Shown here one piece after another: positions 51,999 to 54,783 of a stretch of DNA of 64,000 nt. The notes beneath the pieces were generated by a model. The model did not search any database. It worked only from the letters and a program-made list of their open reading frames with translations, and was not told the origin of the DNA. Location: IMG/VR virus record IMGVR_UViG_3300032334_001433, positions 96,001 to 160,000 of that record. One strand, given 5' to 3'. Both the position numbers and the translations under genes were made by a program. How positions within the stretch are numbered: position 1 is the first letter of the stretch; each line of letters starts with the position of its first letter. This DNA is from a virus (Duplodnaviria > Caudoviricetes).

Positions 51999-52445
51999 AT
52001 GAGTTTAGATTTTTTAGGTAAGCCAAAAGAAGAAATAACAGTAACGCCCTATAAGGCGCCAGCAATATCGCCTTTCGATTTTATTAATGCTATTCATTAT
52101 TCTAAGGATAATTTAATAGTTGACGATTGGTCTGAGAAACAATATAACCCTTTTATAATTAATAAAGGACTTTCATACGGTCACGACACAGTAATTCCTG
52201 CAAATGAGATGAATTCTCGTCCACACCTCGATAAAAAGCTACAAAATTCGTTTTTAATAAATATAATTAGGCCTAAAAAAAGATTCAATAAATGGATTAA
52301 GGCTGAGAAAATTGAAGCGATCGAGGTGATTAAGGAATACTATGGATATAGCACAGATAAAGCACGCCAAGTACTCCCACTTTTCGATAAAAATAAATTA
52401 GATTATTTAAGAATAAAACTAATAAAAGGTGGTAGGAATGGCTGA
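51999..52445 (+). CDS. gp62: Clamp loader small subunit gp62
   Basis: YNPFIINKGLS, RPKKRFNKW, IKEYYGYS. Confidence 0.92.
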   Translation: MSLDFLGKPKEEITVTPYKAPAISPFDFINAIHYSKDNLIVDDWSEKQYNPFIINKGLSYGHDTVIPANEMNSRPHLDKKLQNSFLINIIRPKKRFNKWIKAEKIEAIEVIKEYYGYSTDKARQVLPLFDKNKLDYLRIKLIKGGRNG

Positions 52446-52866
52446 AGATATTTTTCACATTGATTTTCCTGGTTATAATCCATTAGAAGTAACCTTGACA
52501 CAACCGGACGACTTTTTGAAAGTCCGAGAAACACTAACACGCATAGGTGTAGCATCACGAAAAGATAAGGTGCTATATCAATCTTGTCATATTCTGCACA
52601 AGCAGGGTAGATATTTTATTGTACACTTTAAAGAATTGTTTGCGTTAGATGGCAAATCTGCAGATTTAACGGATAATGATCTAGAACGACGAAACACTAT
52701 TGCTAAATTGCTAATAGATTGGGGTTTAGTAAAAGTCGTAAAACCAGAATTGTTTCAAGAGCTTGCTCCATTGTCGCAGATTAAAGTAATTGCGTTTAAA
52801 GATAAACATGATTGGTCTTTGCAAACAAAATATAATATTGGTAAGAAAAAGCAAACAACAGACTAA
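52438..52866 (+). CDS. regA: Translational repressor RegA
   Basis: DDFLKVRETLTRIGVAS, LYQSCHILHKQGRYFIVHFKELF, KYNIGK. Confidence 0.96.
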   Translation: MAEDIFHIDFPGYNPLEVTLTQPDDFLKVRETLTRIGVASRKDKVLYQSCHILHKQGRYFIVHFKELFALDGKSADLTDNDLERRNTIAKLLIDWGLVKVVKPELFQELAPLSQIKVIAFKDKHDWSLQTKYNIGKKKQTTD

Positions 52867-52873
52867 TAATCTG

Positions 52874-52881
52874 TATAAATA
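52874..52881 (+). promoter_or_regulatory. T4-type late promoter upstream of the hsp20 leader
   Basis: TATAAATA 7 nt after the regA stop. Confidence 0.75.
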
Positions 52882-52886
52882 ATTTT

Positions 52887-53097
52887 ATCCCCGGGATGGG
52901 ATGGCAGGGGGTGCGACCTACGCCATAAGTTAAAACGCACACTAATAACACGGCGGATGCCCTGGCGTATCCGTTCTTCAATCCCACCTTAGGGCTGTTT
53001 GATGCTACGGTATAAGGCGTCCGAGAAATTTCACTGCCACTCGTTAGTTGGCCCTGTATAAAGTAAGCAGGAATAACCGCTATGCCTTCGGGGTAGC
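52887..53097 (+). ncRNA. Candidate structured RNA / long 5' leader of hsp20
   Basis: GC-enriched, no credible ORF, many complementary blocks and a terminal cUUCGg hairpin. Confidence 0.5.
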
Positions 53098-53126
53098 AAT
53101 TTTAACTCGCTTTTAAGGAGAAAACT

Positions 53127-53636
53127 ATGACACATCTGTCAGTATTCGGTCCTGGCTTTAAGGACTTTGATAAATTTTTTGTTGGTTTTGATAATCAATT
53201 TACTCGCATGGCTAAGATGCATGATGATCTAACGAAAAACATTCCAAGCTATCCTCCATACAACATTAAGAAAACAGACGAAAACAAGTATGTTATTGAA
53301 ATGGCTGTCGCTGGATTTTCCAAGCAGGAAATTGAAATTGAATTTGTAGACGACAAGCTCGTTATCAAAGGCAATGCAGCAGAGGATAACGACGCACTAG
53401 AGTGGTTGTACAAAGGAATCGCTTCACGTAATTTCACAAGAACATTTGCTCTTAACGATCAAATTGAAATTAAAGATGCTGCTCTTATTAATGGTATGCT
53501 AAAGATTGCTCTTGAGCGTATTATTCCTGAGCACAAGAAGCCAAAGAAAATTGATGTGAAGGATGATGCTGAAGTTGCAGCAAAACCTGCAAAAAAATCT
53601 AGTAAGCCTCAGTATCTTACAGAAGATGATTTGTGA
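53127..53636 (+). CDS. hsp20: Small heat shock protein Hsp20 (IbpA-like)
   Basis: YPPYNI, IEMAVAGFSK, YKGIASRNFTRTF, NGMLKIALERIIPE. Confidence 0.95.
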   Translation: MTHLSVFGPGFKDFDKFFVGFDNQFTRMAKMHDDLTKNIPSYPPYNIKKTDENKYVIEMAVAGFSKQEIEIEFVDDKLVIKGNAAEDNDALEWLYKGIASRNFTRTFALNDQIEIKDAALINGMLKIALERIIPEHKKPKKIDVKDDAEVAAKPAKKSSKPQYLTEDDL

Positions 53637-53859: not shown

Positions 53860-53885
53860 GATCAAATACTTATAATTTGCTTGAA

Positions 53886-53893
53886 TATAAATA
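53886..53893 (+). promoter_or_regulatory. T4-type late promoter
   Basis: TATAAATA in intergenic region. Confidence 0.6.
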
Positions 53894-53957
53894 CTAATGA
53901 CATTATAATTAAGATGTTTTATAATGAGATTGAAGCTTTTGAATTTATGGAAACAAT

Positions 53958-54296
53958 ATGATTAAAATTTTAAAAACAATTACCGGCGAAGAATTGGTCG
54001 GCGACGTTACTAGATTGCAGAGTACGTTAACTATAAATAAACCTTTTATGGTAACAATGGCCAGAGATCCTGCAAACCCGGGCGGCGATATGCAGTTGGC
54101 ATTATTTCCCTATGTTCCGTATGTAAAAGATCATACATTGTTATTGGATGAAAAAAGTGTAGTGTGGATGACTGACCTAGTTGATTCTATGGTTAAAGAC
54201 TATAATAATGCACTTGAATCATTAAAGATTACTGAAGTTGTTCCTGAAAAGAAAGAACAATTTACAACCTTTGCGAATATAACAAAGACTATATGA
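53958..54296 (+). CDS. Conserved hypothetical protein
   Basis: IKILKTITGEELVG start, typical of the gene after hsp20 in T4-like aquatic phages. Confidence 0.6.
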   Translation: MIKILKTITGEELVGDVTRLQSTLTINKPFMVTMARDPANPGGDMQLALFPYVPYVKDHTLLLDEKSVVWMTDLVDSMVKDYNNALESLKITEVVPEKKEQFTTFANITKTI

Positions 54297-54708: not shown

Positions 54709-54783
54709 TGCGGGTTGGCGCAGTAGTAGCGCGCTGGACTCATAATCCAGAGGTCGGTGGTGCGAATCCATCACCCGCATCCA
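54709..54783 (+). tRNA. tRNA with CAT anticodon (Met or Ile2), encoded CCA, non-canonical elbow
   Basis: Acceptor TGCGGGT/ACCCGCA, D stem GCGC/GCGC, anticodon stem CTGGA/TCCAG with loop CTCATAA, T stem GGTGG/CCATC, terminal TCCA. Confidence 0.9.

Follow-up and report, generated by a model that had tools for sequence, protein, structure and literature searches.

The 64,000-nt window analysed here comes from a complete virus record of 202,665 nt, that of a T4-like phage. On its + strand, the gene for the RegA translational repressor (52438..52866; PHROG 242, E 2e-61) is followed by hsp20, which encodes an IbpA-like small heat-shock protein (53127..53636; PHROG 432, E 3e-43; PF00011, E 6e-19). 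The gap between the two genes, which lies 3' of T4-type clamp and clamp-loader genes, holds a leader of 240 nt ahead of hsp20 (52887-53126). Upstream of this leader is the T4-type sequence TATAAATA (52874..52881, + strand), a plausible late promoter given that the same genome encodes a gp55-like late sigma factor (phrog_234, E 2e-57). With the promoter spacing of T4, the leader RNA is predicted to start near 52887. The distance from this copy of TATAAATA to its ORF is 253 nt, compared with 24-72 nt for most other intergenic copies on the + strand.

Several features were observed around the locus and its relatives. In the window, the next gene cluster is preceded (53881-53968) by overlapping sites of the sigma-70 type together with another copy of TATAAATA, at 53886, and a tRNA with a CAU anticodon (54709-54780) has an unusual T-loop with G where U55 is expected, as it also does in locus L005. 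In locus L002, a NifU-like Fe-S assembly gene and a second gene, IscA-like by eye and ending in a CGCG motif, are inserted with their own TATAAATA between regA and the leader (L002:1341-2019). A precursor peptide resembling PqqA is encoded just 5' of the leader in L009 (2280-2350), L068 (1935-2010) and L303; the pqqA-like motif occurs in 31 fetched loci and is absent from G000, and this neighbour hints at proteobacterial hosts.

Conservation of the leader among relatives

The GC content of the leader is 49.6% (52887-53126) against 34.3% in the window, a value reached by 5% of the 240-nt windows of the genome. Its nested folding energy is no better than that of shuffled sequences (z 0.25), and folding of the single sequence is neither significant nor yields the conserved fold. 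As the folding energy is unremarkable and stems drawn from a single sequence prove nothing, the case for structure was built on relatives: 160 loci were found via the Hsp20 and RegA proteins, and ~370 via DNA patterns in viral and metagenome contigs. RNA libraries contributed small-share runs only, as contigs of 85-92% relatives. Comparison of more than 200 related copies gives, from 5' to 3', a 5' hairpin (hairpin A), a pseudoknot (PK1), a hairpin, a hairpin with an ACCUUA loop, two further pseudoknots (PK2 and PK3) and a two-hairpin thermometer of the ROSE type. In an alignment of 75 sequences, pairing over the complete model reaches 97% and 214 changes are double-sided; sliding the model lowers the pairing to 29-41%. 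Exchanges between G-U and G-C pairs in this alignment identify the + strand as the RNA strand.

The original prediction, drawn from one sequence, had proposed more structure than an RNA thermometer needs, and had named a lack of covariation or a degenerate coding remnant as grounds for giving this up. Every motif it quoted is present in its place, and the alignment of related regA-hsp20 regions contains covariation, which supports a conserved structured RNA of that extent. A coding remnant is ruled out, as the overlapping minus-strand ORF of 63 aa is without support and indels of 1-2 nt break the frame among close relatives; from these indels, the leader is not coding. A second copy of the pseudoknot block was not found elsewhere in this genome. 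The leader is almost certainly a real, conserved multi-pseudoknot RNA.

The ROSE-type 3' end

The original prediction had set a thermometer aside, but the 3' 55 nt of the leader are recognisable as one of the ROSE type. Hairpin I (53079..53097, + strand), the UUCG hairpin it had listed last, has a bulged G and aligns to ROSE_3; its pairs, counted in the best-scoring register, persist in 90-106 of 106 variants and occur as many different pair types. Hairpin II (53106..53120, + strand), an anti-Shine-Dalgarno (anti-SD) hairpin that had been missed, is predicted to pair 53106-11 with 53116-20, leaving G53109 bulged and a U(U/C)GCU motif paired with the Shine-Dalgarno sequence (SD) AGGAG. Among relatives, this motif takes the C form in 93 cases and the U form in 13. 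The defining trait of ROSE elements is a U(U/C)GCU motif that pairs with the SD and leaves a G bulged (PMC3669281). In addition to this trait, a stable hairpin lies upstream and a small heat-shock gene follows directly, with the hsp20 start 6 nt past the SD.

The Rfam score falls short, as ROSE_3 (RF02523) reaches 18.8 bits here and 21-30 bits in relatives against a gathering cut-off of 43, and the whole-genome Rfam search did not report it at this leader. At gathering, the Infernal/Rfam search that had been suggested as a check returned only tRNA in the window and 20 relatives, and at relaxed E values only a weak ROSE_3 match recurred. BLAST against cultured phages found only a short stretch of the ROSE core. 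Together with this low score, modest predicted melting stands against a thermometer, with a modelled probability of 0.20 at 25 C and 0.37 at 50 C that the SD is unpaired.

The ROSE core is found ahead of 131 of 138 hsp20 loci, and the same two hairpins precede bacterial ibpA homologues behind sigma-32-like promoters. In the isolates Melnitz, HTVC008M and S-CRM01, this core stands alone, with no pseudoknots, as it does at 14 bacterial Hsp20 homologues (44-47%); for the bacteria, the absence of pseudoknots is weakly tested, by a lack of matches to model R1 in six loci. By its anatomy, the 3' end would work like a ROSE element, thermosensing being extrapolated from the bacterial homologues. In many relatives, an ORF of 70-76 aa without a Pfam or PHROG match, reminiscent of phasins, lies between the ROSE core and hsp20 (e.g., L002:2278-2499). 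The element would accordingly govern the first gene of the operon, and ROSE-type control of that gene is quite probable. Arginine 101 of Hsp20 (window 53409-53450) presumably matches R93 of E. coli IbpA, which reportedly mediates binding of IbpA to its own 5' UTR, and autoregulation of Hsp20 through this kept arginine is possible.

Compared with the short ROSE-like thermometers of Pseudomonas ibpA (ROSE_3), the element is phage-borne and stands behind a late promoter instead of a sigma-32 promoter. It also differs in scoring below the Rfam cut-off and in having 190 nt of pseudoknots upstream, which are absent from any described ROSE element. Within the limits of the library searched, neither a ROSE thermometer encoded by a phage nor pseudoknots of this family are described in the literature.

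Hairpins and pseudoknots upstream of the thermometer

Hairpin A (52887..52902, + strand) lies at the predicted 5' end and pairs 52887-91 with 52898-902 around a loop ending in GGGA. Its core pairs are kept in 77-83 of 83 variants, with the caveat that the 3' strand belonged to the search pattern and changes are mostly one-sided; in 43 of the 83, the stem lies 5-6 nt past TAAATA, and in L085 it is fully exchanged. These observations provide moderate evidence that hairpin A is conserved at the predicted start. PK1 (52902..52940, + strand) is an H-type pseudoknot of 12 pairs, in which stem 1 (52902-08/52917-25, with a 2-nt bulge) is crossed by stem 2 (52911-15/52936-40), and loop 3 is A-rich. The crossing stems ATGGC/GCCAT and GTGCG/CGCAC had been proposed as a possible H-type pseudoknot, and a change of G-C to A-U within stem 2 in L245 agrees with this. 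A perfect H-type pseudoknot fills the PK1 slot in 28 of 37 distinct relatives picked without regard to pairing, compared with 76 of 1110 shuffles (6.8%), using a detector that misses the bulged PK1 of the window itself. The pseudoknots in this slot are unrelated in sequence, with a first loop of 1-2 nt and an A-rich third loop, and the predicted fold of PK1 is shown by covariation.

Between PK1 and PK2 lie two hairpins. The first, at 52953..52974 (+ strand; z -2.0), is optional; it had been noted originally and is backed by a compensatory change of G-C to A-U in L004, and a longer hairpin takes its place in L005. The second is a short 3-bp hairpin with a conserved ACCUUA loop (52983..52994, + strand), which is 98% paired in alignment A1, where its columns were fixed by the search pattern, and is also present in ~39 of 70 protein-selected leaders. 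The loop, which resembles the anti-SD tail of 16S rRNA, is complementary to UAAGG of the hsp20 SD; as an alternative anti-SD, it is offered only 3 pairs by the SD in many carriers. PK2 (52995..53021, + strand) is an H-type pseudoknot of 10 pairs in which 52995-98/53007-10 crosses 53001-06/53015-21, with G53016 bulged, so that the hairpin at 53001-21 of the original prediction reappears as its stem 2. In columns partly fixed by the search pattern, PK2 is 95% paired, and its changes are one-sided only (U-G/C-G 47/25 and 58/12). PK2 is the least proven module, with weaker support for its fold than PK1 and PK3 have.

PK3 (53022..53071, + strand) is a double pseudoknot of 50 nt and 18 pairs. Its helices join 53022-24 to 53041-43, 53033-35 to 53062-64, 53036-40 to 53047-52 (U53048 bulged) and 53053-57 to 53067-71, the last with a loop ending in GUAA, and a 2-bp hairpin occupies 53025-32. 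When 54 distinct variants were parsed with no reference to pairing, 941 of 983 cells turned out to be paired, and the top ten of 1275 column pairs by MI-APC are all predicted pairs. In the alignment of 75 sequences, double changes occur in every counted helix but one. The helix CCTGT/GCAGG (53067-71), which had been described as a competing pairing, has double changes at 4 of its 5 pairs. The second pseudoknot (53033-35/53062-64) had gone unnoticed, as had the modular gain and loss described below. The core is kept in a second subtype with different letters, and the predicted PK3 fold is strongly supported by covariation. The 2-bp hairpin is usually palindromic (three covarying forms), with some variants that break it, and the palindrome could act as an intermolecular kissing contact.

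The long-range stems proposed earlier do not hold up. The pairing of AGGGCTG (52991) with TGGCCCT (53049) is 73.7% paired without covariation, and 428 of 500 shuffles are as good. For TGGCAG (52902)/CTGCCA (53034), the 3' strand belongs to two local helices that covary; its changes are compensated in the local partner and not in the distal TGGCAG. For TGGGAT (52897)/ATCCCA (52981), the 3' strand differs in L001, L002, L003 and L005, leaving 4 pairs, and is absent from many relatives; UGGGA at 52897 can pair instead with UCCC at the predicted start. There is thus no sign of one large switch, since the long-range partners of the 52897 and 53034 strands do not track these strands of local helices and the 52991/53049 stem fails. 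Upstream of the thermometer, the fold is a chain of local, interchangeable pseudoknot modules rather than a single long-range switch.

In an approximate, regex-based census of 70 distinct protein-selected leaders of the near clade, in which a few are mislabelled, hairpin A occurs together with the ACCUUA hairpin and PK3 in ~28 and with PK1 in 13, the full set found here occurs in 4, and 15 are without any module. Where hairpin A is present, so is PK1, PK3 or both. On a quick RegA-Hsp20 tree, PK3 needs 8 gains or losses, at least 4 of them forced by strong branches, and the module order is swapped in L033. As far as sequence comparison can tell, the ROSE core is near-universal and the pseudoknots are optional, interchangeable and repeatedly gained or lost. 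Other variation was observed as well, with further undescribed inserts or alternative 3' domains, some longer than 50 nt, in the leaders of L286, L299, L176, L247, L336, L211 and L212, and, in marine-type L098, L100, L105, L120, L127, L128 and L154, another optional element ahead of the same core, a long hairpin rich in purines.

The ACCUUA-PK3 block was found in 205 distinct copies, 187 of which follow regA; among the 187 block copies with enough flank, 179 run into the hsp20 operon and 8 do not. With L192 and L337, ~10 copies of ACCUUA-PK2-PK3 are without ROSE or hsp20, and three of these lie away from regA. Several ROSE-less copies lie only 2-7 nt past a stop codon, and a new promoter or a run rich in U comes after them. 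In L172 (3860), L329 (minus strand) and L337 (minus strand), the block lies 3-5 nt past the stop codons of unrelated genes, and no regA, ROSE or hsp20 was detected nearby. These contexts suggest that the block moves between phage groups. It is rather doubtful that it forms a new, mobile class of phage RNA with its own activity (decoy, aptamer or ribozyme), docked before ROSE in most phages and standing alone in others. The copies without ROSE or hsp20 lend some support to the independent late ncRNA of the original prediction, but most copies run into the hsp20 operon.

In line with the original prediction, none of the described families accounts for the upstream part, and no Rfam family fits the pseudoknots. 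No described ribozyme or riboswitch of Rfam 15 matched the window or 40 related loci, using models that omit pseudoknots and are of limited sensitivity. The flaviviral xrRNAs are tandem compact pseudoknots as well, and the leader does not have their three-way-junction fold. The antitoxin repeats of the ToxI type share the tandem compact pseudoknots; here, however, the units differ and are not repeats, ToxI (RF02519) had no match at the leader, and hsp20 follows with no toxin gene. The manA RNA is also a structured RNA of ~200 nt of T4-like phages, reported upstream of ibpA-type genes (PMC2864571). However, true manA copies show no resemblance to this leader, in which manA (RF01745) had no match at E 10, while positive controls in marine phage records scored 95-122 bits. 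Bona fide manA RNAs were observed in the marine phage records L162 and L163 (122 and 95 bits), the L163 copy between tRNA-like sequences.

Proposed function of the pseudoknot array

As a structured RNA, the leader is real and well supported; it joins a thermometer of the ROSE type to a modular array of pseudoknots that had not been described. As the 5' leader of a late hsp20 operon, it may act in two layers. The last 55 nt would hide the SD in the cold and free it on warming. Hairpin A and the three tandem pseudoknots would block 5'-end-dependent decay, both at pyrophosphate removal and at RNase E scanning, and would keep upstream sequence off the weak thermometer. An untranslated, ribosome-free message could then survive until needed, and a message silenced by a thermometer would stand to gain from such protection. 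The probability of this two-layer explanation as a whole is put at about 0.5, and that the pseudoknots serve mainly as a decay roadblock falls slightly short of an even bet.

Scanning by RNase E is hindered by H-type pseudoknots with 8-15 coaxial pairs, to a degree that scales with their length, and not by plain stem-loops (PMC9943677). As in that work, where the effect is sequence-independent, coaxial H-type pseudoknots of comparable size lie in a 5' UTR; with 12, 10 and 18 pairs, PK1, PK2 and PK3 are all coaxial pseudoknots of at least 8 pairs, and they lie on the stretch that leads from the 5' end to the hsp20 coding region. However, the earlier obstacles were engineered viral and telomerase pseudoknots in E. 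coli (PMC9943677), whereas the present comparison concerns structure only, and RNase E-type decay is an assumption. Another precedent is the T4/T2 gene 32 leader, likewise with an H-type pseudoknot that varies in sequence among relatives (PMC3014915). The gene 32 mRNA of T4 is its most stable message, which the paper does not credit to the pseudoknot (PMC3014915). In contrast to the single pseudoknot that nucleates gp32 autorepression there (PMC3014915), up to three precede hsp20 here, without a known binding protein. Fold type seems to count for more than sequence, since one slot takes pseudoknots of unrelated sequence and hairpin A is accompanied by PK1, by PK3 or by the two together. Against a roadblock, about one-fifth of close relatives and all three isolates are without pseudoknots, a 5' roadblock has little to protect in ROSE-less copies behind stop codons, and the sequence-conserved ACCUUA and GUAA loops are not required by a purely mechanical role.

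The main rival takes ACCUUA-PK2-PK3 (52983-53071) to be an autonomous small RNA, either co-transcribed with the operon message or released from it by cleavage, that would serve as a trans-acting protein decoy or scaffold; the protein may be the phage RegA, Hsp20, a host factor or a toxin. The block occurs without ROSE and hsp20, three times in contexts other than regA (L172, L329 and L337), is structured at both ends and has conserved loops, but 179 of the 187 copies with enough flank continue into the hsp20 operon, no + strand terminator precedes ROSE in the window, and a ToxI match is lacking at the leader. A link to RegA is raised by the 187 of 205 copies that follow regA and by the RegA SELEX consensus, which contains AAUUG and ends in GUAA (PMC3014915), both words being found in PK3 loops. 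RegA nevertheless binds unstructured RNA (PMC3014915), and here the GU of GUAA is paired. On balance, a small RNA or decoy is unlikely.

An aptamer and a ribozyme are less likely, since the modules have few invariant unpaired bases and show no coupling to the SD. In the former case, PK3 would sense a ligand or ion in tandem with the thermometer, as a second signal gating hsp20. Riboswitches do occur in T4-like marine phages (PMC9004378). PK3 is compact and contains a lone pair and a bulge, its A...GUAA loop is invariant, and its second subtype has one CGU strand with alternative partners. However, the module is not joined by any conserved pairing to a terminator or to the hairpin that holds the SD, the unrelated PK1 can take the place of PK3, the two subtypes share few invariant unpaired bases, and there is no Rfam riboswitch match, which makes an aptamer improbable. 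There is no evidence of self-cleavage or ligand sensing for the ribozyme or complex switch originally envisaged, and its switch-like stems fail.

A self-cleaving ribozyme of a new class, in PK3 or the whole block, would separate regA from the downstream RNA or leave a protective 5'-OH end. Double pseudoknots of this size and topology are typical of small ribozymes, and the location is intergenic in phages, at times right behind a stop codon. This is very improbable: twister, pistol, hatchet, hammerhead and HDV-like models had no match even at E 10, the helix order of PK3 is not known from these classes, and no unpaired G or C is invariant across subtypes as a catalytic candidate. It is just as improbable that the pseudoknots only aid folding of the weak ROSE hairpin, as 5' hairpins do in ROSE1 (PMC3669281), or guard the 3' end of regA mRNA from 3'-5' exonucleases, as promoter-less copies abutting the regA stop and a terminal hairpin with a U-run in some phages might suggest, given that most copies lie behind their own promoter (TAAATA within 200 nt in 169 of 193) and simple hairpins would be enough for either job.

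The double-pseudoknot model of PK3, the full three-pseudoknot version of the leader and the copies without hsp20 are new. With its unusually clean covariation and undescribed helix order, PK3 is a candidate for structure determination and for screens of ligand binding and self-cleavage. If the proposed decay roadblock is true, these leaders would be a natural combinatorial case of pseudoknots armouring an mRNA kept untranslated by a thermometer, and would offer a ready library of compact stabilising parts.
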